From NCBI GenBank assembly GCA_002304835.1, contig DBPK01000007.1, positions 18,650 to 82,649 on the forward strand: a stretch of DNA of 64,000 nt, given 5' to 3'. Position numbers and translations under genes: made by a program. The notes under the pieces were generated by a model. The model worked only from the letters and a program-made list of their open reading frames with translations, was not told the DNA's origin and searched no databases. Below are positions 3,952-41,690 of the stretch, in pieces (position 1 is the first letter of the stretch; each line of letters starts with the position of its first letter). Source of the DNA: Firmicutes bacterium UBA1422 (GTDB lineage Bacteria > Bacillota > Clostridia > Peptostreptococcales > Anaerovoracaceae).

Positions 3952-4554
3952 TCATTCCAGATCCTTGATTACTTTTACGGCAACGCCCTGTATAATGCAG
4001 TTGTCTATGAATATATCCTCCATTTCCGTATTCTCCGGATGTAGTCTGATCCTCTTGCTGGCCTTATCAATATAGAACCGCTTAAGCGTTGCTTCATTGT
4101 CGATCAGAGCAACTACGATCTCGCCTTCTTCTGCCTCTGATTGACTTTTTATTACTACCATATCGCCGTTCTCTATGCCGGCTCCTATCATGGAGTCGCC
4201 CTTTGCATGGAGCAGATAGAACGGACCCTTTCCGAACAAAGACTCAGGGAGGGAAACGTACTCTTCGATGTTTTCTTCTGCAAACTGTGGTAGTCCGCAG
4301 GCAACACTCCCAAGTATAGCTGCCCTGTTCTCATTCAGATCAGTCTTAAGCATCACATTCGTTCTGATTTCTCTGCCGGTGTAAGAGAGCATTCCTCTTT
4401 CATCCATTTCCACCAGGTACCTGTGGACCGTACCTCTGGAAATCCCGACAGCTTCGGCGATCTTGGTATTGGAAGGTGAGTTATAATGGTCAAAATAGTA
4501 TTTCTCTATATAGTCCATTATCCTTGTCATAGTCGCTTCACTCTTTTTTCGCAT
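3952..4554 (-). CDS. LexA-like repressor (wHTH + S24 autopeptidase domain)
   Basis: N-terminal HTH IAEAVGISRGTVHRYL. Cleavage-site-like VACG. S24 motifs GDSMIGAGIENGD (Ser) and TLKRF (Lys). RBS AAAGGAG. Confidence 0.85.
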   Translation of the reverse strand: MRKKSEATMTRIMDYIEKYYFDHYNSPSNTKIAEAVGISRGTVHRYLVEMDERGMLSYTGREIRTNVMLKTDLNENRAAILGSVACGLPQFAEENIEEYVSLPESLFGKGPFYLLHAKGDSMIGAGIENGDMVVIKSQSEAEEGEIVVALIDNEATLKRFYIDKASKRIRLHPENTEMEDIFIDNCIIQGVAVKVIKDLE

Positions 4555-6550: not shown

Positions 6551-6556
6551 AAAACA

Positions 6557-8302: not shown

Positions 8303-8315
8303 ACGACTCTCCTTA

Positions 8316-9461: not shown

Positions 9462-9468
9462 TCATCTC

Positions 9469-13473: not shown

Positions 13474-14024
13474 CAGAAAATCTCCTCTTCTATAATGCTC
13501 TGTATCTTGACCCTTGCCGGAAACATCGGCAGGTACTCCTGCAGTTTTTCTGTATCTATATCATATACTCGCTCACGGTAACTGCGTACTATCTCTTTGT
13601 AATAATCATATGGCAGCTTGCTTCGATATTTAATCAATTCTATGATCAGCCGTTCAAGATCATATATGCGGATATCAACTCCCTGATGATTCATTTGTGT
13701 TTTCCCAATATCCAGAAGGTCCTCACTGCAGAAATACTGTTTGATCTTTTTGTTGCGTATCTTTGATGCGTTCCTGCCGGTATTGAGTATATATTTATCT
13801 GGGATCACATCCGTAAGGCCATGATAATAGAAGGCGCTGTCGAGAGTTAATATTGCGTTAGGATATTTGAACATAACAAGTTCAAGCTCTGAGACTCTGT
13901 CTCTATCAGCATATATGCCTTTTTCGATCTGGAACAACGTCCCATCGTTTACTGCTTTTTTCAGATTGTAATCAGTCCCGTATTTATCCATACATGCGCG
14001 ATATGAATAGATCATTCCTGGCAT
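13473..14024 (-). CDS. AbiEi-family antitoxin / transcriptional regulator
   Basis: N-terminal wHTH-like GTLFQIEKGIYADRD and ILTLDSAFYYHGLTD pattern typical of AbiEi. Translationally coupled to AbiEii. Confidence 0.7.
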   Translation of the reverse strand: MPGMIYSYRACMDKYGTDYNLKKAVNDGTLFQIEKGIYADRDRVSELELVMFKYPNAILTLDSAFYYHGLTDVIPDKYILNTGRNASKIRNKKIKQYFCSEDLLDIGKTQMNHQGVDIRIYDLERLIIELIKYRSKLPYDYYKEIVRSYRERVYDIDTEKLQEYLPMFPARVKIQSIIEEEIF

Positions 14025-18935: not shown

Positions 18936-19949
18936 CTACAAATTATCAAGCTTAGATCCTATTGAATATATTCGCCATTTATTATGCCACTTAACCAGAT
19001 TCATTACATAAATGCCTGGGACAATCTGTTCTTCTTCAATTACGAAGCCTTCGTCAACCCGTTCAAACAAATATATATAAGCGATGCTATGTTCATCATT
19101 GTATCTAACCTTATTGCTGATTCCAATATTTTTTATACCACAAATATAATCATGTGCATCCGAAAAATCCCCCCAATCAAAACGCGTTAATGGATATATC
19201 ATACGTCTTAAATTTTTAACTTTATAGTCTTCTTTCTGTAATTCATATAAAAAAGCATTCCCTACAAAATAAATCCTTTCGGATTCTTCATCCTTTTCTT
19301 CCAAAACGCTTTGCAAGTCCTTCTCTGTAAAATCATGACCATAAATATTTTTCCAATGTGGTGATTTTTCTATACTACGCTTTATTCCTTTATTTGTTAC
19401 TCGCAGCACAGAAGCAGTTTGATTCGCTTGCTGAAACAATTTTGGAATCCCAGACATTTCAATCAAATCATATGTATAAAACAAAATTTTTTCAATACTG
19501 TCAACATATTGATAGATTGCAACAAAGAGAAGTCCTTTGTCTGTTTTTAATACTTTTTCTATCTTACCCTTATCTGCATGCAAATATATCCCATATAATT
19601 CAGCCTCTATCGTTTCCCGCAGATTAAGCTCTGTTCCGTCAGACAGAACCGTTTGCATTTCTGATTCTTCTATTTCATTCAATTTTTTCTTTATGGCTTG
19701 TACTTCTTCTTTATTATCTATACAGTAATCTTCCAAATTTACAAGAATATTCCCTAGATAAACATTATTATTCTTTTTCTTTGTAGTATATTTTCTTAAT
19801 ACCATTAACTTTCCAAAAGTATAATAGTATTCTTTTTCATTCGTACCTGCGATGACATCTTTAGTTTTCTCAGCAGAATTGCAATTTGAAAATGACTTGT
19901 ATTCATCAACGGTGTACATAAAAAGTTGTAAATTTTCTATATCCCTCAT
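18936..19949 (-). CDS. Hypothetical 337-aa protein, partner of the HEPN-like gene
   Basis: AT-rich ORF with RBS TAGGAG, 37 nt downstream of the 771-aa ORF. No motif recognised. Confidence 0.7.
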   Translation of the reverse strand: MRDIENLQLFMYTVDEYKSFSNCNSAEKTKDVIAGTNEKEYYYTFGKLMVLRKYTTKKKNNNVYLGNILVNLEDYCIDNKEEVQAIKKKLNEIEESEMQTVLSDGTELNLRETIEAELYGIYLHADKGKIEKVLKTDKGLLFVAIYQYVDSIEKILFYTYDLIEMSGIPKLFQQANQTASVLRVTNKGIKRSIEKSPHWKNIYGHDFTEKDLQSVLEEKDEESERIYFVGNAFLYELQKEDYKVKNLRRMIYPLTRFDWGDFSDAHDYICGIKNIGISNKVRYNDEHSIAYIYLFERVDEGFVIEEEQIVPGIYVMNLVKWHNKWRIYSIGSKLDNL

Positions 19950-19986
19950 ACAGATCTCCTATACTTACTTTTTAAAGCAAAGAATT

Positions 19987-22242
19987 TCAGTCTTCCGCAC
20001 CAACAGAAAAATTCTCTTTAACAATTTCTGTTCTTTTCATCACCATAGAAATTGATAATAGCGTGATTTTAAATGCATTTTCTTTATCACTATATATGTA
20101 ATCTCTCCCGTGAATACATTCGTTTCGAATATTAAGCGAATTGCTATTATACATCATATTATATATAAATAAAAAATCCGGTACACTTTCAAATGATTTT
20201 TCATGCTCATAAACATCTGTTAGTATTTCTCTTATAATCGAGCTAGGATCCTTATATTTCATGAAATCTTTTTCACTTTCTTTAAATGGTACAATATTTA
20301 CTATGCTGGCGAATTCCCTGATTTTCATTTCCAAAAGTGGAAATAGCTGAGTAATATGTGCAATTGTTATTTCATCTTCAAATGGTATTAATTCAAACTC
20401 TGTATTTTGTTTGACTTTGTCATAAAGCTCTTTTGTTTTATCAAACAATGCTACACGAATTTTGGTTATTTCTTTGTATCTTTTATGAACAGCTTTAACA
20501 TAACTATCTGTGTCAAATTCGTTTAATAGTTTATATCCATATTTACTCTTGATTTCTTCAATTTGTTTCTTCAGAAGTCCGTCCACTTCATGTCTCTCAT
20601 AAGGAAAATTCTGCGGCTCTAATTTAGGGTATTCACTATTCAACTCAACACACTGTGCAAAATTCAAAAACACATTTTTTGACGTATCTTCCATCACCGT
20701 TAAAATGCTATGCAAATCGGGAAACACGCACTCTCTTCCTAATATTATTGCGTCATGTAATACATCCAAATTACAATTGTCTAATGTCTTTTTAGGAATA
20801 GTAAACTCTTGCTTTGCTTCTTTCAATATTGATTTGCTTTGTTCATAATATCTGTCATGCCAGATTTGTTGTTTGTGTATCATCTCCCTCTGAACCATTT
20901 CTTTATTAATATCCTTGTTGCCTTTTAATCTGATTAAAAAAATCATATACCAATAAAACAGGCTTGCGGTCTCTAAATCAATATCGCCACTAATATATTC
21001 GTTGACCTTGCTTATTATCTTACTGAAATAATCATTGTTGATAGTTCTTGTCACGTATACATTTTGTAAATAATCTACAAACTCATTCTTATCAGTAACA
21101 TGATCTATGCGACGATATTGACTATTATAGTAATTCCTCACAATATCTTTTTTTGTTTTCGGTAATGGTATTCCTCTTTCTTTTAGGGTTATTAGTGTTA
21201 CTTCATCTGTCACTTTTTCAAGCGATTGTTCCAGGAGTGCAATTTTATCGTCCATATTTAGTGAAGTTATTGCCTTATCATTAAATAAATATGAAATGAT
21301 TTCAAGTGATGAATAACCCAAAAAATTTATAGTACTGTCATCATTAATAGCATTCGTTAACAATGTAAAATGATCACTTGCAACCTCTTTAGTCATCATG
21401 TTGCCGTTATTTACATAGTCGATACTTTCTAGCACAAAATTTGCCACTTCATTTTTGAAATATGATTTCATCAATTTAATAGTATACTCATCCCAAAGCA
21501 TAATATCCGGATATGAATAATTCCCGAATTCCATACATGGTATAATTTTATGATCTCTAATCCTTATTTTTACCATGTCTAATAAATATTTCTCCTCCCA
21601 AGGCCCATATTGACTAGTTTCTACTTGTTTAAAGTTGAATGCATTCGCATTCCAGATTGCCTCTTTATTGTTATCTATAAACGCAGAATTTGCAGTATGC
21701 TCCACCATATGAATATTATCTAATAAACAGCTTTTAGCCTGTTCAAAACCTTCAATATGGATTGAATCAATATACGATACTATTATTTCTTCATCCTCTT
21801 GCATTCCAGTAAAATTTAAAAGTTTAAACAGATTATAATTAAATAAGCATCGAGTATCCGCTATACTATCAATTTCATTATAAGCATTCCCTAATTTTGT
21901 AAGCCATACAATCAATAATGCTATTTTACCACTAACAGTAGAAGCCTTCTTACTTGCTTCCTCAAATCCCATTAAACCCAAATAATATTTAGCACATATG
22001 AATAGTTCTTCCGAAATCGCATTATCAAAAGAAAAATCAAAATTGTCTATTTTCAGTATCCTAATATAATATGCGTATATCTGCTCGTAATTCCCCCTGC
22101 GTTTTAAATATGAATTCCAATCACTTGCTTCACTCAAGTCATAATTCTTTTCTATTTCCTTAATAAACCACTGCCAATCATTGCTTGCAGCTAATATATT
22201 ATCCATATATTTTACTTCTATATCATGTTCTAAATAATTATT
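19987..22242 (-). CDS. Large protein with C-terminal Rx4H HEPN/DUF4209-like domain. 5' end severed by IS3 (native start is at 23526).
   Basis: C-terminal NSLNIRNECIHGRDY is an R-x4-H motif in a helical region. The ORF-track N-terminus (22243-22302, GTG) lies inside the IS left end. Removing the IS and one ATT copy fuses GGAGG-ttgta-ATG GCA AAT in frame to AAT TAT TTA GAA CAT... (M-A-N-N-Y-L-E-H). Confidence 0.65.
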   Translation of the reverse strand, partial: NNYLEHDIEVKYMDNILAASNDWQWFIKEIEKNYDLSEASDWNSYLKRRGNYEQIYAYYIRILKIDNFDFSFDNAISEELFICAKYYLGLMGFEEASKKASTVSGKIALLIVWLTKLGNAYNEIDSIADTRCLFNYNLFKLLNFTGMQEDEEIIVSYIDSIHIEGFEQAKSCLLDNIHMVEHTANSAFIDNNKEAIWNANAFNFKQVETSQYGPWEEKYLLDMVKIRIRDHKIIPCMEFGNYSYPDIMLWDEYTIKLMKSYFKNEVANFVLESIDYVNNGNMMTKEVASDHFTLLTNAINDDSTINFLGYSSLEIISYLFNDKAITSLNMDDKIALLEQSLEKVTDEVTLITLKERGIPLPKTKKDIVRNYYNSQYRRIDHVTDKNEFVDYLQNVYVTRTINNDYFSKIISKVNEYISGDIDLETASLFYWYMIFLIRLKGNKDINKEMVQREMIHKQQIWHDRYYEQSKSILKEAKQEFTIPKKTLDNCNLDVLHDAIILGRECVFPDLHSILTVMEDTSKNVFLNFAQCVELNSEYPKLEPQNFPYERHEVDGLLKKQIEEIKSKYGYKLLNEFDTDSYVKAVHKRYKEITKIRVALFDKTKELYDKVKQNTEFELIPFEDEITIAHITQLFPLLEMKIREFASIVNIVPFKESEKDFMKYKDPSSIIREILTDVYEHEKSFESVPDFLFIYNMMYNSNSLNIRNECIHGRDYIYSDKENAFKITLLSISMVMKRTEIVKENFSVGAED

Positions 22243-22319
22243 TGGATCTATATTAAATAAGTGGACACGCAAAGTAAATAATTGTACTGTTAAATCAGAC
22301 ACTAAAAGGAGGTATCTGT

Positions 22320-26648: not shown

Positions 26649-28009
26649 ATGCTCTTCACTCCTTTCCTTTCTCGCACTTCATTGCGCTCTCTGTCTACTG
26701 TCTCAAGGTTCTTCTCCATGACTTTGGATCTTTTTCCGATGTCACCTGCAAGTCGGAGATCTTTTCTGCATACCTTGAGCTTCTCTGTTAGTTCTTTTAT
26801 CTTTTCCTTGGCTGCGTCACGGTCAGGCTCGCTGATGTTACGCTTCACCATTTTCCTCAGTTCTTCCCTTTCGCCTGTGAGCTTCTCCACAGTATCCTTT
26901 GTTCCTGCAACAAAACTTCCAAGGTCTACATCGGTCTCGATCTTATTCCTCACCAGAAACTTTGCTTCCTCGCTATACATATCGCATTTGAGAATATCCT
27001 CTTTCAGGACTATATGGAGCTTGGTCGGTCTCTGTGTATACTTTGGCAGATAGCCAAGCTCATAGCAGTACCGAAGGTATAGCTTTTCAAGTCCCGTCCT
27101 TCCCATGATCTTATCTATCCTGCGTTTCAAATTATAGTTGTTGGGCGTTTTATGCGCCTGCCTGATCCGCTCCGTCCTGACTGACGGGTCGTTGCCGTAT
27201 ACGCGCTCCATGATCCTGTCTTTGGTATACTCTTCGCCAAGCCTGTATGTCCTTATGCTTTTGTTCCAGCCCGGAGGCACAATAGACCAGTACTTATGCT
27301 TTGGATCAAGTTTACAGACATAGCCGCGTTTCTTCAGCTCGCCCGCAAACTCTTCCATGTTCAGGCTGAGCGATACGGCTTCATCTATAGCCTGCCTCGC
27401 GATGTTATATCTTGTCGGCATACCTGCCTGCTCCATTTTGTATATGTTCATATTCAGTCTTTTCCCTTCCGGCTTTTCTATGATGGACAGGCCATGCTCC
27501 TTGCAGAGTCTGTCCGATGTCTCACGCAGGTTCTTGTATGCTTCATTGCAGAAGTGGAACCTGTTGCCATCACAAAAGGAAACCGAGTTGAATACAAAAT
27601 GATTATGGAAGTGCTTGGTGTTAAGATGCGTCGCAACTATTACTTGGAAGCGGTCACCCCATAATTCCCTGGCCAGCTCGACTCCGATCTCATGTGCTTC
27701 TGCAGCTGACACCTCGCCTTCTCTGAAGCTCTGGTAACAGTGACCGGCAACTATGCCGCCCTCTTTGCCAAACCTCATCTTGACCGTATCGAACTGATCC
27801 TTGGCGGCAGTCACATTACAGTTGATGCCTGTAGTGTAAAACTGCAGGTCTGTCTTCTCTCTGTTGGACGCGTAGTCTATTACATCAGAAAGAGCTTTAT
27901 CATTTGCTATCGGTTCAGTCTCCCTGTTCTTTGTCTTCTCAGTATCCTCTACATAAGCTAAGGAAACGGATGCGTTTCCTCTTATCCGCCAGATCCTCGT
28001 TACTGCCAT
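26645..28009 (-). CDS. MobA/VirD2-family relaxase
   Basis: Histidine triad region THLNTKHFHNHFVFNSV. N-terminal relaxase domain followed by a coiled-coil C-terminus. Overlaps mobC. Confidence 0.85.
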   Translation of the reverse strand: MAVTRIWRIRGNASVSLAYVEDTEKTKNRETEPIANDKALSDVIDYASNREKTDLQFYTTGINCNVTAAKDQFDTVKMRFGKEGGIVAGHCYQSFREGEVSAAEAHEIGVELARELWGDRFQVIVATHLNTKHFHNHFVFNSVSFCDGNRFHFCNEAYKNLRETSDRLCKEHGLSIIEKPEGKRLNMNIYKMEQAGMPTRYNIARQAIDEAVSLSLNMEEFAGELKKRGYVCKLDPKHKYWSIVPPGWNKSIRTYRLGEEYTKDRIMERVYGNDPSVRTERIRQAHKTPNNYNLKRRIDKIMGRTGLEKLYLRYCYELGYLPKYTQRPTKLHIVLKEDILKCDMYSEEAKFLVRNKIETDVDLGSFVAGTKDTVEKLTGEREELRKMVKRNISEPDRDAAKEKIKELTEKLKVCRKDLRLAGDIGKRSKVMEKNLETVDRERNEVRERKGVKSI

Positions 28010-28329
28010 CTCTTATCCACCTTGTCAGGCCTTAGATACTCTCGCTCTATCTTTGCCTGGAGCAGGTGGAGGCTCCTGGCTTCATCTTCAAGGATCGACT
28101 TTGCTTCTTCCGAATGCGTGCCTGCCTTTCTGCTTAATTCATCAGCAAGTTCGCGAAGATTGTCCATGTCCGCAAAGAACCTGTCGTCCGGCGCTTCTCT
28201 TGGGATGAACCCTGCAATGAGCATCCTTATATATCTTGACTCCGTCATGCAGGCATTCTTCGCCTTCTTCTTAAGATCCTCTGCTTCCTTCTTATTCATC
28301 CATATCTGTTTCTTTATGCTTCGTTTCAT
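28000..28329 (-). CDS. mobC: MobC-family relaxosome accessory protein
   Basis: 109 aa with RHH-like N-terminus ESRYIRMLIAGFIP. Lies immediately upstream of the relaxase. Confidence 0.7.
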   Translation of the reverse strand: MKRSIKKQIWMNKKEAEDLKKKAKNACMTESRYIRMLIAGFIPREAPDDRFFADMDNLRELADELSRKAGTHSEEAKSILEDEARSLHLLQAKIEREYLRPDKVDKRWQ

Positions 28330-28354
28330 TTGCCTGTCCTTTCATATTTCTGTA

Positions 28355-28440
28355 AGTTAAGGCGCAGCGGTATGCTGCGCCCGGGGTCTCAGGGGTATCC
28401 CCTGCATATCCTGCGTGAGGGAGTGCGTACTCCTGAATGC
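28355..28440 (-). promoter_or_regulatory. Candidate oriT (cluster of GC-rich inverted repeats upstream of mobC)
   Basis: GGCGCAGC-ggtat-GCTGCGCC at 28361-28381. CAGGGG-tat-CCCCTG at 28390-28404. GGAGT-gcgt-ACTCC at 28420-28433. Confidence 0.4.
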
Positions 28441-28479
28441 TTTGCTTGCTAAAGATAGCGGAAACACTTTTCCTGCTGT

Positions 28480-29103
28480 CTACCTTTCCATTCCGGCTGA
28501 TTTTTCTCTTCCTTTAGGTTCCGTCTTGACTACTTTTATCCCTTCAGAAGTCCTGAAAAACTCTTCCGGGCTCTTGAACATTTCGGTGTATTTCTTCTCC
28601 ATGTCCGGCGGAAGCGACAAGAATTTCTCGCTTTCTATGGGCGCGTAGCAAATAAAAAAGGTGCCGGACATAACGTCCAGCAGGCACCCGTCTTCGCCGT
28701 AAATCGCTCTGTTCGGAGGCAGTCCCATGAGCTTTCCTTCCTCGTTGCACACTATGGCAACATCGTCTTCGAATGGCATATATTCCTCTATCATGCCTCC
28801 GACTGCATTCTGCATTGACTCAAGACTGTCATTCATCTCGACCATTTCTGCTTTTTCTCCCGGCCTTACAAGCAGCACTTTCATAGTGTCTGCTTTCGAA
28901 AAGCTGTCGCCTTCTGACAGTGCAAGGCTACTTCCGTTGTCCCACGCCACATGGATCTGACCTATATCATCTACTGATGTCACCGTCCCTCTAAGTCCAT
29001 TCGGCATTTTATCCTCTCCTGCCATCTCACTCAGCACCACTCTGGTACCCTTCATATATTCTTCTGATAATCTTTCAGCGTTCATAGCTATCATTCCTTT
29101 CAT
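28480..29103 (-). CDS. DUF4314 + DUF3846-like ICE protein
   Basis: GLRGTVTSVDDIGQIHVAWDNGSSLAL (DUF4314-like), then MKVLLVRPGEKAEMVEM..LMGLPPNRAI (DUF3846-like). Family names are from memory. Confidence 0.5.
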   Translation of the reverse strand: MKGMIAMNAERLSEEYMKGTRVVLSEMAGEDKMPNGLRGTVTSVDDIGQIHVAWDNGSSLALSEGDSFSKADTMKVLLVRPGEKAEMVEMNDSLESMQNAVGGMIEEYMPFEDDVAIVCNEEGKLMGLPPNRAIYGEDGCLLDVMSGTFFICYAPIESEKFLSLPPDMEKKYTEMFKSPEEFFRTSEGIKVVKTEPKGREKSAGMER

Positions 29104-30037
29104 GTTTATCCTTCAGCATCCTATGCGTATGCATAAGCTCATCGTTCATGTCTTTTCCGTATTCCGGCGGCTCGTCCCTTATCCTGTAATCACTTCCAAG
29201 GACTCCTGCGAGAGACTTTGCCATGCTTCTCCCGACTTTGTCATTATCAAGATGGAAGGCTATCTCATTCACATCCTTATGCCGGTCAATGAACATAGAA
29301 AGTGCTGCAGGCACTTTGACTCGTGACAGATCGGCACTCGGCTGATACACTCCTGCAAGAGAAAGCATATGGTCTTCAGGCATTCTCCCTGTCCTCATCT
29401 TTTCAAGTGTCGCAAATGACAGAAGGTCTATAGTGCTCTCAAAAACATGGACCGCACTTCCTTTTCCTTCGATACGGAAGCTGTATCTCTTATCGCTTCC
29501 TGCGGCATCTCCCATGATCCTCGCAGGTTTCGTTGCTCGAAAGCTCGCATACCTTGCTGTTCCGCTTTCATCGAATCCAAGGAATATGCAGTTCCTGTGT
29601 GGCACTGACTCATAGATCAAACCTTTTTCTAAGCAGCGTTCTACGAGGTCTCTATCGATCCCACGATCTGTGAGATAACGGATCACCTGATTATTGGTGC
29701 TGTTTCTCTCCGGAAGAAGCAGTTTCTTTTCCTTCTTTTCTTCTTTTGGTTGTACTAAAAAAGGAAGGCTTCTGCCCTCCGCGTTCAGTATCATCCCCAC
29801 AGCTTCTGTGAATGGATGACCTCTTACTTTTACCAGATAGTCAAGCGCCGATGCTCCGCCGAATCCTCTCGACCACCACATCCACTTGCCGTTTGAGATC
29901 GACATACTGTCGTGCGTCCTGGTCGAGTAATTCTCACCGGACACTTTGACCAGATCTCCCGGATCACACAGTCTGAGATACGTCAGAAGATCCATCTCAC
30001 GCGCCTTTTCTACCTGCTCATTATCGTAATATGGCAT
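29075..30037 (-). CDS. DUF3991/Toprim-domain protein (primase-like)
   Basis: Start set at MPYYDNEQ after GGAAGGAGG. N-terminal LLTYL..VKVSGENYSTRTHDSMSISNGKWMWWSRGFGG pattern. C-terminal Toprim-like HLDNDKVGR. Confidence 0.7.
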   Translation of the reverse strand: MPYYDNEQVEKAREMDLLTYLRLCDPGDLVKVSGENYSTRTHDSMSISNGKWMWWSRGFGGASALDYLVKVRGHPFTEAVGMILNAEGRSLPFLVQPKEEKKEKKLLLPERNSTNNQVIRYLTDRGIDRDLVERCLEKGLIYESVPHRNCIFLGFDESGTARYASFRATKPARIMGDAAGSDKRYSFRIEGKGSAVHVFESTIDLLSFATLEKMRTGRMPEDHMLSLAGVYQPSADLSRVKVPAALSMFIDRHKDVNEIAFHLDNDKVGRSMAKSLAGVLGSDYRIRDEPPEYGKDMNDELMHTHRMLKDKHERNDSYER

Positions 30038-30119
30038 TACATTTTTCCTCCTTCCAATAAAAAAGGACGCCGGTAGGCGTCCAATGTATACCATTTAAAA
30101 GCGAAACACCATTTTAAGT

Positions 30120-32837
30120 TTATGACAAGTTTAGTGAAGATAAGTGTGCCAATAAGTAAGCATCGGCATTAGAATTTTTAGCATTCAATCTTTCAAGAAC
30201 AGCGTGCTCTGTTTCTGGACTCCAATATATTTTTAATCTTTCTTTTGCTCGTGTAATAGCAGTATAAAAAATATTGTGAGTGATACGTTCTTCTACCTCA
30301 TTTGTAATTACTATTTTCACTGAATTAAATTCTAAACCTTGTGCTTTGTGAATAGAGACCGCGTAAGCAACCTGAAACGGCATCACTGTTGAATCATTGT
30401 CCTCGTCATCTTCATCGGTACTTCGGTGTTTATTAACATTAAAGCCAATAATAGAATGTCCTTTTTCAGATTCTCCCAAAAGGACAAATTCATACCCCTG
30501 AGCATCAAGTTCATTAATTGATTTATCGAGTTCAATGCTGAAAAATATTCTTTTTTCTTCAACAATAATATCACTAATTCTCCCCTTTGAATTGTTATGA
30601 ATAACAGGCGAAAATCTGTTTGCCTCGTTAAACAAAATAGGATCCCCCACTTTATAAGTGTTAATCCCCCATCGTATACTTTCATTTGAATTATTACTTT
30701 GAAGGAATCTATTGACATTGTTAATTCCGTATAATCCATCATAATTAAGGCACAGGATAATCTCATCATCTTCAGTATGTTCAAATATTGATTCATCCAA
30801 TTTCGTTGTAAAACCGTATTTTACAAGCGGTTCTAAAATAGAATCATCAACATTGCGTACGCGATCCCATACTGTGATTAGTTCATCTTTTGTAGTACGG
30901 AATGGGTGCTTTAGTTCAAAAACAGCAGTACGCGGTACAAACTTTCGTACTATTTCAAACCAATTCCCGAAATAGATTGATTCAATCTGAAAAGTATCTC
31001 CAACAAGAACTATCAATTGAAATTTTGCCTTTTCTAAAATTTTTTTCATATCAGCATTACTTACAGTACTACATTCATCTATAAATAAAATGTCACATTC
31101 TGTATCATAATTACTAGAAGAAAGAAACTTTGCTATTGTTCCAAACAAACTATTCCCTGTTGTCACCTTTCTTCTCATATTCTCAACGGCAGGATGTGTA
31201 TTTGCAAGATACATTTTCCTTTTATCTGCCCAAAAATTTGAAATGTGCTTAATTAGTGTTGTTTTCCCTGTCCCTGCTGATCCATATATCAATGCCACTC
31301 GTGATTCTGAAAATAATTGCCGCAATGCTTCTTTCTTATTGTCATCATCTATCTCATATGCGTCAGTAGTTAGCCATGAATCAACCGAATTTGTATAATG
31401 TGCTATTCCAGATGAAGAAAGTTTTTGAATAGTTTCAATAATTTCGGTGCTGTCCTCAACATATTCTTTAATATAAATGTACCCTTCAAAACTCTCAAGT
31501 CTACGATTCTGATGTTTATAATACAGCAATCCATTATACTTTCTAATTAGTCCATCAATATCATCAAAGTCTTGAATATCATCTTTTGGAGTAAATAGTT
31601 TCCCCTCAGTTTCAGTATTGTTTTTAATAAATCTCGCAAAAAGCTCATGTTCGCGACCGTCAATTGGGATTGACTCAAACAAGTCATAAATCCTAGGGTT
31701 ATGCCTTACTAAAGATGTACAATATGGCATTTTATCAAACGGAATACAACTATAGCTTAAATACAGATTCTCTAATCTATCGCATTGTTCCCCATACAGT
31801 TGTTCCTTTATTATTCTATTGTTCATGTTATATAGCAAATATCTTATTATATTAGCACCCGGTTTTGTTTTGATAATAATATTCCTACATTCATCAAGAA
31901 GTTCAAATATCTTTATTGCCTGGCTACGTGATGTGACTGTTGCTTTTACAGAATCATAATAAACTTGACCACATGTTACCAATTCCGTTAGTGATATTTT
32001 CCCTTCTGTAAGGAATTTCATCAATTCACCGTATTCGCTTAAGGATGTGCTTATCTGCATACGTCTACCGAAAATCTCAGAAAAATTCTGGAACTCACAT
32101 GGCCTTATAGAAACTGTCCACCCTTCAATAACTTGAATTGTCATACTTTTATCCAGTATATTTATTACATCATCATGTATATTGAATTTTACGGCATAAT
32201 TACTGACTATTTCATGTTTTGTAAAAGCAATCACCCGATCAAATTTACTGGTTTTTGCATTTGCATCAGTGAAAGTTACTTCATAGTAAATCCGATTATT
32301 TACAAAAAATGGCTTGATCTTCTGAACATAATATCGATCATCATAGTGCCCTGCTTTACAATCCCTACTTGGATTCTCAATTATCATAGCAATTCTTGCA
32401 TAGTAATCCGATAATTCCTTGTCGGTATCTATAGGAAAATCCTGAATATTATTGAGAATTTGCATATCATATTTTGTATCAAGAAAGTTTTTTATTCTTA
32501 GCAGATACTCATAGTATTTTAGCATTAAGCGTTCTGATCCATCTTTATTCACGGTATAATGTGAAACGGATTTCTGTAGCATTTTATGAAACCTGCTAAC
32601 AAATCTCATGTCGCCATGTGCTGCAATTTCATTTAATAATTTTTCCCTTTCATCATAATCATTTGGATCAATGTCTTTGCCATTTGACATGGCTTTCATA
32701 GCAACATATTCAACAAGATTTCTTATTTGGCTCAATATGTTTTGGCTCAATATTCCTCTTTCTTCCAAATCAAACTTTGAAATATTCTCACAAATTACAT
32801 TGTCTGTATTTATAATAGCTTCATCTATTCTTAGCAT
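30120..32837 (-). CDS. Orphan SF1 (RecD-like, AAA_30/UvrD_C_2-type) helicase with a ~520-aa uncharacterised N-terminal region
   Basis: Walker A LIYGSAGTGKTTLI, Walker B ILFIDECSTV, motif III VLVGDTFQIESI, SIHKAQGLEF, YTAITRAKERL. Start set at ATG (MLRIDE) after GTGAGGT. AT-rich. Confidence 0.8.
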   Translation of the reverse strand: MLRIDEAIINTDNVICENISKFDLEERGILSQNILSQIRNLVEYVAMKAMSNGKDIDPNDYDEREKLLNEIAAHGDMRFVSRFHKMLQKSVSHYTVNKDGSERLMLKYYEYLLRIKNFLDTKYDMQILNNIQDFPIDTDKELSDYYARIAMIIENPSRDCKAGHYDDRYYVQKIKPFFVNNRIYYEVTFTDANAKTSKFDRVIAFTKHEIVSNYAVKFNIHDDVINILDKSMTIQVIEGWTVSIRPCEFQNFSEIFGRRMQISTSLSEYGELMKFLTEGKISLTELVTCGQVYYDSVKATVTSRSQAIKIFELLDECRNIIIKTKPGANIIRYLLYNMNNRIIKEQLYGEQCDRLENLYLSYSCIPFDKMPYCTSLVRHNPRIYDLFESIPIDGREHELFARFIKNNTETEGKLFTPKDDIQDFDDIDGLIRKYNGLLYYKHQNRRLESFEGYIYIKEYVEDSTEIIETIQKLSSSGIAHYTNSVDSWLTTDAYEIDDDNKKEALRQLFSESRVALIYGSAGTGKTTLIKHISNFWADKRKMYLANTHPAVENMRRKVTTGNSLFGTIAKFLSSSNYDTECDILFIDECSTVSNADMKKILEKAKFQLIVLVGDTFQIESIYFGNWFEIVRKFVPRTAVFELKHPFRTTKDELITVWDRVRNVDDSILEPLVKYGFTTKLDESIFEHTEDDEIILCLNYDGLYGINNVNRFLQSNNSNESIRWGINTYKVGDPILFNEANRFSPVIHNNSKGRISDIIVEEKRIFFSIELDKSINELDAQGYEFVLLGESEKGHSIIGFNVNKHRSTDEDDEDNDSTVMPFQVAYAVSIHKAQGLEFNSVKIVITNEVEERITHNIFYTAITRAKERLKIYWSPETEHAVLERLNAKNSNADAYLLAHLSSLNLS

Positions 32838-32934
32838 TTTATGTAACCTCACTTTTGTAACATTATCTTTAATTGACCATGTGATAATTAATTATATCAC
32901 ATGGTCAAATTCCAAAGTTGTATACTTGGGCGTT

Positions 32935-33216
32935 TTATCTCTCCCACCCTTTCGATTTCTTTTCCGTGAATTTTGCCATAGCAGCTTTTTCTCTGCCGTC
33001 CATGAGTCCTCTAAGTGACTGCATGTCATCTTCAGAAAGCGTTATGCCTCTTGACATGTGTTCATGATCCGGATCCCAATCACGGATATCGTACTTGGCC
33101 GGGCCTTCGTTCCAGGAAACTACATTAATCTCCTTCTGCCAGCCGTTCTGATATTTTGCTATTACTCCAACATGCTCTATGACCTCGAATGAGATCTCAT
33201 TTCTTTTGTTTTCCAT
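32935..33216 (-). CDS. YdbC/PC4-like ssDNA-binding protein
   Basis: WQKEINVVSWNEGPAKYDIRDWDPDHEHMSRGITLSEDD pattern. Start set at MENKRNE after GAAGGGAGAA. Confidence 0.6.
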   Translation of the reverse strand: MENKRNEISFEVIEHVGVIAKYQNGWQKEINVVSWNEGPAKYDIRDWDPDHEHMSRGITLSEDDMQSLRGLMDGREKAAMAKFTEKKSKGWER

Positions 33217-33238
33217 TTTGTTTTCTCCCTTCGTTTTC

Positions 33239-33736
33239 TCAACGTTCCATTGCTTTTGACATCTTTGAAGACGTGTGGTCATCAAGAAGACCTTCCGCCT
33301 TGAAGCTCATCATCTGGCCGCTCTCGCCTGCCACTATGATATGATCCACCATCTTTATATCAAGCATCCTTCCGCATTCTGCAAGCCTTCCAGTGACTTC
33401 CCTATCCTCTGCGCTTGCTATAGGGGTGCCTGACGGGTGATTGTGGATCGCGATGAATGCAGCTGCATTTGAAAGTATGCTGCTCTTGAACACCTCTCTC
33501 GGGCTCACCATAGATGAGTTGAGTGTCCCTACGCTGCAGACATTCATGTTGATCACCTGTCCGTTGGACTTGAGATTAAGTATAGCAAAGACCTCTCTGT
33601 CATAGTCCTTCATCTCATTTGCGATTACATCAAGCACGTCCTGCGGCGAGCTTATGGGCTCCGCACTGTAAAGAGAAGGCTCTTTTACCATGCGGATATT
33701 GACCACCTTTATCTCATTTTCTTTCTGCTTTGGCAT
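33239..33736 (-). CDS. radC: RadC-like JAB/MPN domain protein
   Basis: JAMM motif AIHNHPSGTPIASAED. Confidence 0.85.
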   Translation of the reverse strand: MPKQKENEIKVVNIRMVKEPSLYSAEPISSPQDVLDVIANEMKDYDREVFAILNLKSNGQVINMNVCSVGTLNSSMVSPREVFKSSILSNAAAFIAIHNHPSGTPIASAEDREVTGRLAECGRMLDIKMVDHIIVAGESGQMMSFKAEGLLDDHTSSKMSKAMER

Positions 33737-33825
33737 GCGATGTCACCTCCTGTATATCAAACGACAGCACAGTGCCGCCGGGAAGATCTTCTATGATCTT
33801 CTTCACTTCATCAAGGTTCTTTACC

Positions 33826-34092
33826 TCAATAGTCTTCTCCTTCTTGTCCATAGAACTCATCCTCCTTTTCTGTTTCCTTTGGCAGATCGTCAGTCCCCTG
33901 TCCCAGGTAACTTATGACCTTGTGCTTTTTCACCGCATCCTGCAGCTCCGTTATTATGTGGATCTCGGATACCGTCACTCCCTGCATGGACAGTATGTCC
34001 TGTATGCTGAGTGTGGTAAGCTTCTTCTCAGTGTCCACTTTCATGTCTATCAGCCTGTTCAGCGTCCTTACTGTCTGCTTGTCCATTCCCAT
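33826..34092 (-). CDS. Hypothetical small protein
   Basis: ORF with RBS GGAAGGGAG before MGMDKQ. No motif. A further ~45-codon ORF (about 33723-33855, MDKKEKTIEVKNLDE...) overlaps its end. Confidence 0.35.
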   Translation of the reverse strand: MGMDKQTVRTLNRLIDMKVDTEKKLTTLSIQDILSMQGVTVSEIHIITELQDAVKKHKVISYLGQGTDDLPKETEKEDEFYGQEGEDY

Positions 34093-34200
34093 TCTTTTTT
34101 TCACTCCCTTCCTCAAGTATTTTCTTCATGCAGTAACCGCAGAAAGGAGCATCGTGGCTCCTGTATCTGCAGTTATCGGGGCAGTTTTCTTTCTTCATGT

Positions 34201-34524
34201 CTACCGCCCCGCTTCCATCATTTTCTTTCCATAGTCAGTAAATGCGTACCAGTTCGTATGATCGAACCTGTTGTCATTGAAACAGCCCTTCCTGATATAT
34301 CCCTTGCCCGCAAGTACATTCACGGCATCCTTTGCCATATGGATGCTGAGATACGGGAACTCGCCCGTCATCATCCTTACTGAGCATCTGTACCAGCATC
34401 GTCCGTGCCTTTCAAGCACGCCGTCTCCATCGCCGTCATCCTTCAGGTGATCCCAGAGGAATTCTGCGATGACGGCTGCGTTGACTCCGCACTTTACCGC
34501 TATGTCATTTCTGAATCCTGTCAT
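34201..34524 (-). CDS. Hypothetical ICE protein (possible winged-helix)
   Basis: 107-aa ORF, backbone-like composition, no firm motif. Confidence 0.45.
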   Translation of the reverse strand: MTGFRNDIAVKCGVNAAVIAEFLWDHLKDDGDGDGVLERHGRCWYRCSVRMMTGEFPYLSIHMAKDAVNVLAGKGYIRKGCFNDNRFDHTNWYAFTDYGKKMMEAGR

Positions 34525-34576
34525 TTCATCCTCCTGTTAAAAGAGGCGACACTTAAGCCGCCTCGATACTTTTGCA

Positions 34577-37141
34577 TTACTCTTCTTTGTTGTCATCGCC
34601 TGTTCCCGCTCCGTCATCAGTCTTCTTTTTCTTGGAAAGCGCCATGATCGCAGTGCATGCTGCAGCCATTATGATCACGAACACCAGAAGGTTCGAGTGA
34701 TCTCCTGTCTGCGGAGAATCGCCCAAAAACAGCGGCTTAGGGTATTTCACACTCTGTCCATAGTCATTTATGTCAGAATGTGTCGTTACCTTTATGCCTT
34801 GGTGATACAGATCCTCAAAGACTACTACAGTCTTTCCTTCAAGCTTGCTGGAATCGAAAGCATATCTCAGTTCTACTGTACCGTTTGCTTTCTCTGCAGT
34901 GAACGTCTTTTCAGCCGTGACTTCTTTTCCGTCCACTTTGAGAGGCTTGCCTGTTTCTTTGTTCATGAGCATGCCTTTGACGGTGTACTCTTTTCCCGGC
35001 ACCAGATTACTGTAGCTTACCGTGTCCACTATGACAGCGGTCTTTTCGACTGTTCCTCTGTGAGTCCCGGTCTTTCCGTCTTTAGCTGTAGTGTGGATCT
35101 GCGGATAGTGTATCGTCTGTCCTTCGTCAGTTATGTCTGCATGCATAGTCACTCTGATCCCTTCGTACCAAAGCTTCTCGAATACTACTACGCTCTTTCC
35201 TTCAAGGCCTTTGGAGTCGAATGTGAAGCTCATGTCCACTGTTCCGCTTTCTGTTTCTGCAGTGAAGGTCTTCTCCGCTGTGACCGTCTTGCCATCCACC
35301 TTGAGCGGCTCCTTTGTCGTTTTATCCATGAGCACGCCTTTTACTGTATAAGTCTTGCCTGCGATGAGATTGCTGTATGACACTGTATCAATTATGGTCA
35401 TTTCATTTCCTATCGCTCCGAGATTATCCTTTGTCTTTTCATCCATTGCCGTCGTCTTGATCTCAGGATAGTGGATAGACTGGCCCTCGTCTGTTATGTC
35501 TGAATGAGTCGTAACATTGACATCGCCCATATACAGGTCCTCGAAGACTACCGTTGTCTTTCCCTTCAGCGCCTTCGAATCGAAGATGAATTTCATGGTG
35601 ACTGTCCCGGACTTTTCCGTTGCTGTGAATGTCTTTTCCGATGTCACTTCTTTTCCGTCTACCTTTATTGCTTCTCCGGTATCCTTGTCCATAAGAACGC
35701 CTTTTACTGTATAAGTCTTTCCGGCTATGAGATTGCTATAGCTTACAGTATCAACTATGACCGTGTCTTCTCCCGTCACTCCCTGGTGATCCTCTGTCTT
35801 GATATCCTTTGCTGTCGTCTTGATCTCTGGGTAGTAAATGGTCTGACCTTCATCAGTCAGATCCGCATGCGATGCGATCTTCAGATTTCCATAGTAGAGC
35901 TCCTCGAATACTACCGTTGTCTTTCCTTTGAGAGCCGATGCGTCAAGGTCGTATTCAAGCGTTACTGTCCCTGCGCTTTTCTCTGCAGTGAATGTCTTTT
36001 CAGATGTCACTGCTTTGCCGTTCACTGTTATGGCTTTTCCTGTGTCCTTATCCATGAGAGTGCCTTTGACAGTGTATTCTCTGCCAGGAGTCAGCTTCTG
36101 GTATGACACGGTATCCGTGAACTTTGAATCCGCATATGTCGTTCCCTGGCTGCTGTCAGTGTGAGAATCCTTTGCTTCAGTCTGAAGTCTGATATCAAGC
36201 GGTCCAAACTTTACTGTGAAGCTTGCTGTATCCGCTTTGTCTACTGCAAAAAACGCCATGTTCTGTGATCCGCTGTCTGTGATTTTGTATGCGGTGTAGT
36301 CCTGCAGGTTCCCTGAAAGAGCCCCTGAGGAATATGTGGTGTTTGCTCTGCTGAAATCGGATGTTTTGAGATAAAATGTCTTTCCGCAGTCTATCTCAAG
36401 GCTTGTTCCTGCACTGTATGTCTTGCCGTCCATGAGGAGGCTCATACCGCTAGGTACTTTATAGTCGACATAGTTGTCTTCATTTCCCTTGAGCGTTATG
36501 TTATCGCTTTTGAACTCTCCGTCATCTGTCCATGTTGTAGATGCAGATGATCCGCTGGTCGATGAAAACGATATGGCGGAATCGAAGCCTGCCGGATCGT
36601 CCAGTGAATTGACATATGCTGCCGCCGCTTTGACCATGCTCTGATAGGACTCGCTTATCTGTCCGCTCACCACTCCACCGGACCATCCAACGAATGCTGT
36701 GCCCTGATCATACTGGTATGAAAGCAGCACATGTGATAGCAGGTAAAAGTTCATGCCTGAAGCATAGCTGCTGTGGCCATGACTTGAGAGCCATGAAGCC
36801 AGTTTCTTCTGACCGGGATATCCATAGCAGTAATACATGGTCTTAGCCACCTTGCTGCTGTCGGACATCGCCGATGCTTTTCTCGATCCTGTGTCCGGAG
36901 GCACTTCGTTCGGCTGCAGGCAGTATGCCTGTCTCGTCTTTCCGTTTACCGTCACTGTGTAGTGATGCGCAAGTCCGGATCCTCCGTAGGTATACGATGC
37001 GCTGCTCTTGTCAAGTTTGACAGATATGGTATCTGCCGCATAGGCATTCTCGATCCCTGTGAGCATTGCGACCGGCATATATGCTACTGTGATCAGCACT
37101 GCCATAAGCGCCGCGAACCATTTTTCCTTTGTGATACTCAT
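34577..37141 (-). CDS. Cell-wall-anchored surface adhesin with four tandem CnaB/'VaFE'-type repeats
   Basis: Signal peptide. Repeats have the pattern YPEIKTTAKD..DTVSYSNL..GKTYTVKG.LMDK.TG..KVDGK.VT.EKTF. C-terminal sorting signal SPQTGD + TM + KKKK. Confidence 0.85.
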   Translation of the reverse strand: MSITKEKWFAALMAVLITVAYMPVAMLTGIENAYAADTISVKLDKSSASYTYGGSGLAHHYTVTVNGKTRQAYCLQPNEVPPDTGSRKASAMSDSSKVAKTMYYCYGYPGQKKLASWLSSHGHSSYASGMNFYLLSHVLLSYQYDQGTAFVGWSGGVVSGQISESYQSMVKAAAAYVNSLDDPAGFDSAISFSSTSGSSASTTWTDDGEFKSDNITLKGNEDNYVDYKVPSGMSLLMDGKTYSAGTSLEIDCGKTFYLKTSDFSRANTTYSSGALSGNLQDYTAYKITDSGSQNMAFFAVDKADTASFTVKFGPLDIRLQTEAKDSHTDSSQGTTYADSKFTDTVSYQKLTPGREYTVKGTLMDKDTGKAITVNGKAVTSEKTFTAEKSAGTVTLEYDLDASALKGKTTVVFEELYYGNLKIASHADLTDEGQTIYYPEIKTTAKDIKTEDHQGVTGEDTVIVDTVSYSNLIAGKTYTVKGVLMDKDTGEAIKVDGKEVTSEKTFTATEKSGTVTMKFIFDSKALKGKTTVVFEDLYMGDVNVTTHSDITDEGQSIHYPEIKTTAMDEKTKDNLGAIGNEMTIIDTVSYSNLIAGKTYTVKGVLMDKTTKEPLKVDGKTVTAEKTFTAETESGTVDMSFTFDSKGLEGKSVVVFEKLWYEGIRVTMHADITDEGQTIHYPQIHTTAKDGKTGTHRGTVEKTAVIVDTVSYSNLVPGKEYTVKGMLMNKETGKPLKVDGKEVTAEKTFTAEKANGTVELRYAFDSSKLEGKTVVVFEDLYHQGIKVTTHSDINDYGQSVKYPKPLFLGDSPQTGDHSNLLVFVIIMAAACTAIMALSKKKKTDDGAGTGDDNKEE
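34751..36193 (-). repeat. Four ~363-bp (121-aa) in-frame tandem repeats within the adhesin gene
   Basis: Repeat boundaries at approximately residues 317, 434, 555, 676 and 797 of the 854-aa protein. The first copy is the most diverged. Confidence 0.8.
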
Positions 37142-40139: not shown

Positions 40140-41690
40140 CTATTCGAATTCTATCGTTCCCGGTGGCTTATTCGTGCAGTCGTAAAAGACTCTGTTAACA
40201 TGGGGGACTTCGTTGACTATCCTGGTGGTGACTTTTTCGATGAGATCCCAGGGAAGCTTGGCAGCTTCCGCCGTCATGAAGTCCGATGTCTCCACTGCCC
40301 TCAGGGCTATGGCATGGTCATATGTGCGAAAATCTCCCATTACTCCCACGGAGCGCACGTTGGTCAGGGCGGCAAAATACTGTCCCAGGGTGGGAGCCAG
40401 CTTACCTCCATCGTATGCTGCCACTTCTTCTCTGTATATGGCATCCGCCTCCTGGACGATCTCGACCTTTTCTTCGGTTATATCCCCTATTATCCTTATT
40501 CCCAGACCCGGTCCGGGGAAGGGCTGACGCATTACCAGATGCTTCGGGATGCCCAGTTCCATGCCTGCTTTTCGAACTTCATCTTTAAAAAGCATTTTTA
40601 GGGGCTCTATTATGTCCTTGAAATCCACATGTTCAGGCAGTCCGCCCACGTTGTGATGGGATTTGATGGTGGCGGAGTCTCCCGGGCCGCTTTCTATTAT
40701 ATCCGGGTATATGGTCCCCTGTACCAGAAAGTCCACTTTACCTATTTTTTTTGCTTCGGTTTCGAAAACTCTTATGAACTCTTCTCCTATTATTTTTCTC
40801 TTTTTCTCGGGGTCCGTGACTCCGGCCAGTTTATCATAAAATCTCTGCTGAGCATTTACTCTTATGAAGTCAAGGTCGTAATGGCCGCCTTTGCCAAAAA
40901 CTGCCTCCACTTCATCTGCTTCGTTTTTTCTCAGGAGTCCGTGATCCACAAATACGCAGGTGAGTTGTTTGCCCACTGCCTTCGAAAGGATGACTGCGGA
41001 AACCGATGAATCCACTCCGCCGGAAAGGGCGCAAAGAACTTTGCCGCTACCCACCTTTTCCCTGACGGTTTCTATGGCATTTTCCACGAAGGATCCCATA
41101 TGCCAGTCGCCGCTGCATCCGCATACATCTTTTACAAAACTTCTAAGGATCTTGATGCCTTCCTTAGTGTGCATCACCTCCGGATGGAACTGAGTCGCAT
41201 AGAATCCCCTTGAAACATCTTCCATGGCAGCCACGGGACATATGGGCGTTTCTGCGGTCACTTTGAAACCCTTAGGTGCTTTTTTTATGTAGTCCGTATG
41301 GCTCATCCATGCTATGGTTTTTTCCGGTACTTGGGCAAAAAGTCTGCCGTTTTTGTTTATATCCACCTCTGTGCGTCCGTACTCGCTGGCGGGAGCTTTT
41401 GCCACTTCTCCTCCCAGTCCGTGGGCCAGCACCTGGGCTCCGTAGCATATGCCCAGTATGGGTATCCCAAGCTCGAATATGTCTTTGTCATATTCAAGGG
41501 CCCCCGGGCCGTATGCACTGTTGGGCCCTCCCGTAAGGATCATGCCCTTGGGAGCTTTTTTTTGTATTTCCTCTGCTGATAATGTATAGGGAAGAACTTC
41601 CGCATATACATTAAGGTCTCTGACACGGCGTGCTATCAGCTGATTGTACTGTCCACCGAAATCCAGGACCAGTATGGTCTCGTGCTGCAT
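40140..41690 (-). CDS. guaA: GMP synthase (glutamine-hydrolysing)
   Basis: GATase [12 protein letters not shown]-PPase SGGVDSS. C-terminal PPGTIEFE. Confidence 0.95.

Follow-up and report, generated by a model that had tools for sequence, protein, structure and literature searches.

The window analysed here is a 64,000-nucleotide stretch from Firmicutes bacterium UBA1422 (assembly GCA_002304835.1, contig DBPK01000007.1, positions 18,650 to 82,649 of the forward strand). Roughly its first 39.7 kb (about 1-39.7 kb) is occupied by an integrative and conjugative element (ICE) of some 39 kb, and our subject is a single helicase gene within this element. The gene appears in the open reading frame (ORF) listing of the window as one minus-strand frame (30120..32852) with a GTG start and 910 amino acids (aa). 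We favour the ATG at 32837, where the N-termini of homologues match (MLRID...); this gives a 905-aa product of the PDC-S53 family, encoded at 30120..32837 on the minus strand, with a TAA stop at 30120-30122 and a ribosome-binding site (RBS), GAGG, 9 nt upstream of the ATG (32847..32850, minus strand). The GC content of the gene is 0.32-0.345 (30-33 kb), compared with 0.47-0.50 on both flanks, which carry a DUF3991-plus-Toprim gene (29075-30094) on one side and PC4/YdbC (32935-33285) and RadC (33239-33736) genes on the other. ORF calls, composition and the Pfam domains of the neighbours thus confirm the initial annotation of this locus, which had described one AT-rich gene for about 905 aa between Toprim/DUF3991 and YdbC/RadC genes. 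An open frame of 906 codons in 33% GC DNA, together with thousands of full-length homologues, excludes a chance ORF, and alignment with the homologues indicates that this copy is intact and under strong constraint.

The protein matches the PADLOC model PDC-S53 (PDLC05035) essentially from end to end (E=0, 1309.4 bits, aa 1-899 against positions 1-893 of 900). By the sole criterion available, this hidden Markov model (HMM) match, the gene belongs to PDC-S53: in sequence terms the window protein is the same over its whole length, and PDC-S53 is likewise a single-gene family with members beside Type I restriction-modification (R-M) systems. PDC-S53 is one of 145 computationally defined "phage defence candidates" (PDCs) in PADLOC, which were picked because members occur within Type I R-M, BREX, DISARM or Hma systems; their authors call them untested (Payne et al., bioRxiv 10.1101/2024.01.29.577857). 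The name PDC-S53 is absent from the text and 11 supplements of that paper and from other searchable papers. What was already known is therefore that the family is a catalogued candidate; what we add is a model of the N-terminal region, the extent of the family and the constancy of its architecture, evidence for an exchangeable slot in the ICE, and the absence of a conserved partner.

The C-terminal part of the protein (aa 501-880; 30198..31337, minus strand) is a helicase core of the superfamily 1B (SF1B) RecD2/Dda/TraA type, as judged from Pfam, the RecD2 model and weak matches to PDB entries. Pfam places AAA_30 (3.1e-21), Viral_helicase1 and AAA_19 at aa 502-669 and UvrD_C_2 (7.9e-12) at aa 824-868. 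With its AAA_30-type 1A domain and UvrD_C_2 2A domain, the motor is SF1B in class. The Walker A sequence GSAGTGKT (aa 519-526, with K525; 31260..31283, minus strand) and the Walker B or motif II sequence DECS (aa 587-590; 31068..31079, minus strand) can be read from the translation, and both are invariant across the aligned homologues, as are GDxxQ, HKAQGLE and TAITRAK; all helicase motifs are intact. Each of the five motifs named earlier for this protein (GSAGTGKT, FIDECS, GDTFQ, HKAQGLEF and TRAKERL) is present in the translation. Family resemblance suggests that the predicted motor would translocate 5'->3' on single-stranded DNA (ssDNA).

Several better known helicases share this motor, and none accounts for the whole protein. 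RecD2, Dda and Pif1 have the same AAA_30 and UvrD_C_2 domains, Walker A and B sequences and motifs III-VI, and the motor gives weak matches to the RecD2 structure 3e1s, to RecD and to Pif1. The RecD2 model TIGR01448, however, aligns only from aa 444 to 875 (model positions 262-691) and scores 119 bits against an equivalog cutoff of 500; the N-terminal 445 aa are unrelated to those of RecD2, and the patchy, mobile distribution of PDC-S53 differs from the housekeeping-type distribution of RecD2. With a whole-protein score so far below the cutoff and a different N-terminus, identity with RecD2 is ruled out. The relaxase-helicases TraI, TraA_Ti and TrwC are also large proteins of conjugative elements with a RecD-like C-terminal motor. 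Unlike them, the window protein has no relaxase domain, the TraA_Ti and TraI models match the motor part only and at about one tenth of their cutoffs or lower (61 bits against 590 and 32.5 against 930), and the ICE encodes a separate PF03432 relaxase. A relaxase/HUH or Helitron-like reading was likewise rejected, the region concerned being all-helical and the N-terminal model having no relaxase-like fold match. The PHROG 325 family, "Dda-like helicase", matches almost the entire protein (aa 2-879), from which it follows that prophage copies of the family exist.

No Pfam domain is found in aa 1-500. The initial annotation had spoken of an N-terminal region of about 520 aa that it could not assign; the lack of a recognised domain holds, but the extent does not, since the RecD2 model aligns already from aa 444 and the unassigned part is nearer 445-500 aa. 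A full-length AlphaFold model built with 57 close homologues was of low confidence (mean predicted local confidence, pLDDT, 47.6). An AlphaFold2 (AF2) model of the first 500 aa, built from 95 diverse sequences, reached a pLDDT of 91 and a predicted TM score (pTM) of 0.87. In this model the region begins with a predicted helical bundle (aa 1-154; 32376..32837, minus strand; helices 4-21, 24-50, 61-71, 75-94, 98-123 and 140-154), continues with a five-stranded beta-barrel that resembles an oligonucleotide/oligosaccharide-binding (OB) fold (aa 165-243; 32109..32345, minus strand; strands 169-179, 182-191, 202-206, 215-227 and 230-242), and ends in helical (246-345) and small alpha/beta (347-456) domains whose fold we could not place (aa 246-500; 31338..32102, minus strand). 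Conserved residues are found in all three parts. Near-invariant positions of the bundle are R39, E43, H84, Q88, S92-H93 and Y108; the barrel has invariant Y170, Y185, E186, K198 and Y214; and R245, E248, G327, N329, Y333, Q346, F367, D368, P371, H379-N-P, E398, N435 and H442 are invariant or nearly so in aa 245-500. At least 86 of the 95 diverse members keep R39, S92-H93, Y108, Y170, Y185-E186, K198, Y214, R245 and E248, and the same holds for G327, N329, Y333, Q346, F367, P371, H379, E398 and N435.

A Foldseek search of the N-terminal model against the PDB and BFVD returned nothing at E<=1e-3, and an HMM profile of the region had no match among PDB sequences. The only recurring Foldseek signal, below significance, consisted of local alignments of about 95-106 residues to OB-fold ssDNA binders: RPA70N (probability 0.97), Rim1 (TMt 0.55), and phage single-stranded DNA-binding proteins (SSBs) and baculovirus LEF-3 (probability up to 1.0, root-mean-square deviation 3.5-4.6). 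These matches would fall on the five-stranded barrel. The model thus presents an N-terminal half with a confidently predicted fold that, apart from the OB-like barrel, is unlike solved structures. Pfam, PADLOC, the PDB profile search and Foldseek found no nuclease domain, and the conserved residues contain no HNH or PD-(D/E)xK signature when read in the sequence, the model coordinates not having been inspected. A resemblance of H379-N-P...D385 to a His-Me finger is speculation. We also considered a HEPN reading of aa 39-44 (RNLVEY/RNFVEH, of the form RNxxE[H/Y], for an Rx4-6H motif) and rejected it because the histidine position is variable: among the 95 diverse sequences, 29 have H at position 44, 18 have Y, 17 have A and 6 have G, and the window copy has Y.

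The initial annotation had called the helicase an orphan, which it is not. More than 3,572 protein clusters match it, the best 120 of them all about 905 aa long and 68-72% identical, and relatives are present in at least 588 species of a collection with one genome per species. The best 80 species-level matches are 49-74% identical, mostly over the full length, with a few on short contigs; they come from Bacillota, Bacteroidota, Patescibacteria, Gammaproteobacteria, Spirochaetes, Fusobacteria, Elusimicrobia, Synergistota, Melainabacteria, Actinomycetota, Petrotogaceae and one nanoarchaeon. The architecture is fixed. With the N-terminal 500 aa as query we obtained 900 representative clusters, and the best 150 of these are either proteins of about 900 aa that carry the module at residues 1-500 or shorter entries that appear truncated, with no alternative architecture for the module among them. 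Phages and plasmids rarely carry the family: the N-terminal region occurs in two of 50,697 phage records, both temperate-type genomes, and five of 72,556 plasmids encode a member, one of the five being conjugative and one a 10.7-kb Lactiplantibacillus plasmid.

Comparison with related ICEs shows that the helicase gene is cargo rather than part of the ICE backbone. Homology at the nucleotide level (blastn, 92-94% identity) to two sister ICEs, L100 and L101, ends at 32886/32884 and restarts at 30088, so that the variable slot (30089..32885) contains just the helicase gene. The relatives have a common backbone order of RadC, PC4, the variable segment, DUF3991-Toprim, DUF3846, a NikA-like gene and the relaxase. 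In L100, whose Toprim protein is 91% identical, the slot holds two small ORFs; in L101 (Toprim 89%) it holds Mrr_cat, a 76-aa ORF and DUF3644, which is PADLOC PDC-S19; and in the Aminicella lysinilytica element (L102/L103; Toprim 70%) it holds DUF8435 and a 130-aa ORF. Three sister ICEs thus fill the same position with unrelated genes, in agreement with the earlier argument from composition and position that the helicase has no role in ICE replication. The finding that would have spoken against a defence function, namely that homologues are conserved backbone genes of this ICE family, was not what sister ICEs or metagenomes showed; both agree that the gene is cargo.

The slot appears to have a frame of its own. 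At its entrance the backbone supplies an extended -10 element, TGaTATAAT (32891..32899, minus strand), kept as TGnTATAAT in four ICEs, whose sequences diverge immediately after it; we infer that it works as a promoter. A 14-8-14 palindrome, TTGACCATGTGATA/TATCACATGGTCAA, spans the element (32873..32908, minus strand). Its arms vary between ICEs yet remain complementary, as in L102 (ATGGCCCT/AGGGCCAT) and L100 (AGTCCTG/CAGGACT), the corresponding regions being L100:1020-1075, L101:1795-1850 and L102:8440-8500, and it may serve as an operator or hairpin. At the exit lies an intrinsic terminator, GGACGCCTACCGGCGTCC followed by six T residues (GGACGC..GCGTCC-T6; 30065..30082, minus strand), kept in all four ICEs. 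With its conserved promoter and terminator, the slot looks like a regulated plug-in expression site for cassettes.

Metagenomes provide an independent view of the same exchange. We compared window positions 27000-35000 with wastewater and bioreactor samples (runs X2 and X3). Identity to the window is 99.3-100% for contigs over the helicase and about 93-98% for all but one of the backbone contigs, which implies that the cassette is younger than the diverged backbones or has been exchanged between them. In run X3 the backbone depth is several-fold above that of the cassette. These data suggest that the cassette has recently moved between diverged backbones and that many copies of the ICE lack it. 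Complementary DNA libraries from wastewater contained three or four near-identical contigs of 150-230 nt that fall on the gene, whereas the backbone had none.

For the neighbourhoods of relatives we used 78 loci, one per species, in which ORFs were called, four genes on each side were clustered, and the clusters were identified by Pfam. Type I R-M genes are present in 14 of the 78, nearly always upstream and on the same strand, and large serine recombinases in 11; ParB-methylase fusions occur in five loci, and SLFN/AlbA_2 and PLD-ResIII-DUF3427 genes in four each. At least one R-M or defence-like cluster is found in 22 of the loci. No partner is conserved, the most frequent families among the 144 immediate neighbours being serine recombinases and HsdS with five occurrences each. 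PDC-S53 is therefore a single-gene system with no obligatory partner. A listing of the gene as a candidate single-gene defence, as the initial annotation had proposed, is thus supported: PADLOC lists the family as such, and relatives adjoin R-M, Shedu and Lamassu genes.

Individual loci illustrate this company. A close homologue lies in an integrative and mobilizable element (IME) of Extibacter muris (L001) with EcoRII R-M, Vsr, Fic and RhuM genes; one homologue comes directly after a Type I R-M system and a Shedu gene, separated by a gap of 13 nt; another stands at the edge of a ParA/ParB/RepA_N element, between radical-SAM and Shedu genes; and one adjoins Lamassu and serine recombinase genes. 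The Shedu gene (SduA_C) adjoins the helicase in both gene orders, which occur in different lineages (L005-L008:8887-9987; L010, L011:12830-13936; L017:10830-11933). The two SduA proteins are 70% identical, a divergence similar to that of their helicases from the window copy, and SduA is within four genes in only two of the 78 loci; the adjacency could reflect defence genes that travel together or a functional pairing in a subset of members. In the P0116 context (L013, L014) 24 nt separate the end of a large serine recombinase gene from the start of the helicase, and in L012 and L001 a shorter ORF (170 and 140 aa, respectively) occupies the recombinase position with the same 24-nt gap. We would guess that these short ORFs are recombinase remnants, and the arrangement suggests that recombinase and helicase move as one unit. 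Erysipelothrix phage phi1605 and Terrisporobacter phage TPDSL_ph1 have a common three-gene cassette (L097:6146-10013; L098:6146-10009) in which a PDC-S53-like helicase is accompanied by a 278-aa ORF, 83% identical in the two phages, and by a small gene resembling a repressor. The cassette is encoded opposite to the replication genes, on the lysogeny-side strand and near R-M or methylase genes, and the 278-aa ORF is absent from all other loci examined.

Overall, these data make the gene a credible, already catalogued candidate for a single-gene defence with an unplaced N-terminal domain, as far as sequence and its context can indicate. The most likely role of the PDC-S53 helicase cassette is to protect host and element against invading DNA, be it phages or rival mobile elements, and we consider it an even call whether it does so. 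In an independent study four of eight other PADLOC candidate systems (seven PDCs and one HEC) protected E. coli, which gives a rough prior of one half. Consistent with a defensive role are the PDC-S53 match, the cargo slot, the R-M, Shedu and Lamassu neighbours of relatives, and the presence in the same ICE of a LlaJI-type R-M module and an AbiE pair (described below), together with the rarity of the family in phages and plasmids, its fixed architecture, its intact helicase motifs and the absence of a conserved partner.

How such a defence might work can be sketched, although we regard the specific scheme as doubtful: the N-terminal module would recognise ssDNA or SSB-coated intermediates and license the motor, which would block the invader. 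Through its OB-like barrel and invariant aromatic and basic residues the module might bind ssDNA of the invading DNA; alternatively, its target might be SSB-coated, or replication or recombination, intermediates typical of such DNA. Recognition would load or license a 5'->3' ssDNA motor, which would unwind the intermediates, strip proteins off them or burn ATP, so that replication of the invader is blocked. Because no nuclease domain was found, the motor itself would be the likely effector and the protein probably free of nuclease activity. Phage SSBs are established triggers of the helicase-containing defences Hna, Nhi, Hachiman and AbpAB, and the proposed sensing of ssDNA or SSBs fits this recurring theme. 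Taken to its full extent, the proposal is of a new kind of single-protein immunity, which we put forward with similarly low confidence. A novel sensor of about 450 aa would use an SF1B motor as effector, with no nuclease or toxin, and invading replicons would be cleared or stalled without cell death; the plug-in cassette would be spread across most bacterial phyla, the candidate phyla radiation (CPR) and DPANN archaea, and one ICE lineage would offer it a ready-made expression slot.

Two known single-protein defences invite comparison, and the initial annotation had assigned the protein to their architecture. There are likenesses: Nhi and Hna are also single large polypeptides that join a helicase to a second module, they occur in stand-alone defence-island contexts, and ssDNA or SSB sensing is a plausible common theme. 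The architecture itself is different, the motor here being C-terminal and SF1B, with no nuclease domain found. Nhi consists of a nuclease domain fused to an Upf1-like (AAA_11/AAA_12) SF1 helicase, and as far as domain content can show the window protein is not Nhi, AAA_11 scoring 21.7 bits (cutoff 27), AAA_12 being absent and no nuclease fold having been found. Hna has an N-terminal SF2 helicase and a C-terminal PD-(D/E)xK nuclease; it is ruled out by the C-terminal SF1 motor and the lack of a nuclease domain in Pfam or PADLOC. PADLOC gave no match named Nhi or Hna, the presence of Nhi models in the copy used not having been verified.

A number of observations weigh against a defensive role. 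Our literature search found no experiment on any member of the PDC-S53 family. Conservation of 49-72% identity over 900 aa and across phyla seems unusually high for an immune sensor. No effector domain, whether nuclease, toxin or NADase, was recognised, which leaves the blocking or killing step a guess. About 25 invariant polar residues of the N-terminal half (H93, H379, E186, E248, E398, D368 and others) could form an unrecognised catalytic site, and if they do, the nuclease-free part of the proposal is wrong. The RNA evidence is too thin to establish expression in the quiescent state, and carry-over of DNA is possible. The slot itself, with RadC, PC4/YdbC and a primase-like Toprim gene around it and NikA-like and relaxase genes close by, is probably in the leading region of the ICE, where anti-defence and establishment genes are expected. 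The serine recombinases near 11 of the 78 loci show mobility, not function, and guilt by association cannot separate defence genes from anti-defence or other genes that benefit the element.

The main rival explanation builds on this location. According to it, the helicase would help the conjugative element to counter defences or to become established. As a gene of the leading region it would be switched on early after entry into a new recipient, and its product would protect or process the incoming single strand, for example by displacing host restriction or SSB-bound complexes or by aiding second-strand synthesis. Gene sets of the RadC/PC4/Toprim type typify leading regions and, by extension, would do so in this ICE; the slot lies between just such genes and near the NikA-like and relaxase genes, and the OB-like, ssDNA-type barrel and the conserved promoter embedded in a palindrome would suit an early factor. 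Nevertheless, we think this explanation unlikely. Most members are outside conjugative elements, in chromosomal Type I R-M, Shedu and Lamassu neighbourhoods, IMEs and prophage lysogeny modules; the scarcity of the family on plasmids, with a single conjugative one among its five carriers, is hard to reconcile with it; and a sister ICE fills the slot with an Mrr-like endonuclease and PDC-S19. A role in transfer or rolling-circle replication as a backbone helicase, of the PcrA/HelP or TraI kind, is a further rival, and to this we attach almost no weight. The weak TraA_Ti and TraI matches and the nearby relaxase region are in its favour, but those matches cover the motor only (61 against 590 and 32 against 930), with no HUH or relaxase fold, and the gene has a GC content of 0.33 compared with 0.48 in the backbone. 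Sister ICEs whose Toprim proteins are 89-91% and flanking DNA 92-94% identical lack it and carry other genes in the slot, which effectively refutes the processivity-factor alternative raised in the initial annotation.

A selfish function is another possibility, in which the protein would be a maintenance or replication helicase of small mobile elements (IMEs, prophages and recombinase-borne islands), a module for their replication or for processing coupled to excision. Large serine recombinases near 11 loci, and immediately upstream with a 24-nt gap in two contexts, are compatible with this, as are the full-length match to a Dda-like phage helicase family and the copies on a 10.7-kb plasmid and in two prophages. 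Against this, there is no constant association with a Rep gene, primase or origin, and the neighbours are highly variable; the prophage copies are on the strand opposite the replication genes; members are often appended to hsd operons with no mobility genes; and relatives of this ICE manage without the gene. We judge this quite unlikely. Finally, the protein might be an accessory motor that forms a two-part system with a neighbouring restriction or Shedu nuclease, in which case the window copy would be a remnant that is inactive or has become detached. Several loci have HsdS or HsdR immediately upstream in the same orientation, and SduA_C is adjacent in both gene orders, once at a distance of only 13 nt. 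However, within four genes SduA is found in only 2 and Type I R-M in 14 of the 78 loci, and the window copy is intact, under strong constraint and alone among backbone genes, where it has a promoter, an RBS and a terminator to itself. We consider the accessory-motor reading very unlikely.

If PDC-S53 does act in defence, it would be among the more widespread uncharacterised systems, with relatives, at about 50% identity or more, in at least 588 species that range from Clostridia to Patescibacteria and include a nanoarchaeon, and with a sensor half whose fold the structural databases cannot place. A helicase-only effector, if real, would add a non-destructive mode to a repertoire based mostly on nucleases and toxins. 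If the gene turns out instead to be an establishment or anti-defence factor, it would be a warning against reading all "embedded" candidates as defences. The window offers a clean natural test object, consisting of one gene that has its own RBS and takes promoter and terminator from the backbone of an ICE equipped with R-M and AbiE as well, and the natural "allelic" ICEs with other cassettes in the slot allow comparison. Conjugative elements and phage satellites, such as the SXT/R391 ICEs and P2/P4, are known to have hotspots that carry defence genes. The slot is like them in being a fixed backbone site whose content, of defence-type genes, varies between close relatives; it differs in belonging to another ICE lineage (Bacillota, with a PF03432 relaxase and DUF3991-Toprim) and in what its backbone seems to contribute, namely a conserved terminator and a conserved promoter set in a palindrome whose arms co-vary.

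The rest of the ICE has the genes of a conjugative element and further cargo. It lies beside guaA (40140-41690), whose 3' end faces it and which is followed by guaB, metA and groEL. Besides the PF03432 relaxase, it encodes a tyrosine recombinase (82-1173), a VirB4-like ATPase, a coupling protein, ParA/ParB, a sigma-factor-like protein (2767-3252) and a LexA-like repressor (3952-4554). The AT-rich LlaJI-type R-M module comprises four genes (5327-10866, minus strand) for two 5-methylcytosine methyltransferases, a McrB-like AAA_5 protein and an RE_LlaJI endonuclease. A complete AbiEi/AbiEii pair, of the type IV toxin-antitoxin or abortive infection class, lies between the VirB4-like ATPase and lysozyme/CHAP genes (12673-14024, minus strand). 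Another AT-rich cargo island (18936-22302, minus strand; GC 0.30) consists of ORFs of 337 and 771 aa, and searches of Pfam, PADLOC, NCBIfam and PDB sequences gave no meaningful match for either. The C-terminal end of the 771-aa protein reads ...NIRNECIHGRDY, with an Rx4H pattern reminiscent of HEPN RNases, and the two ORFs may be an uncatalogued defence or abortive-infection pair. Finally, an 854-aa surface protein (34577-37141, minus strand) has a thioester domain and four T-Q ester-bond domains; the Aminicella relative has one too, and it is probably an ICE adhesin for mating-pair formation.

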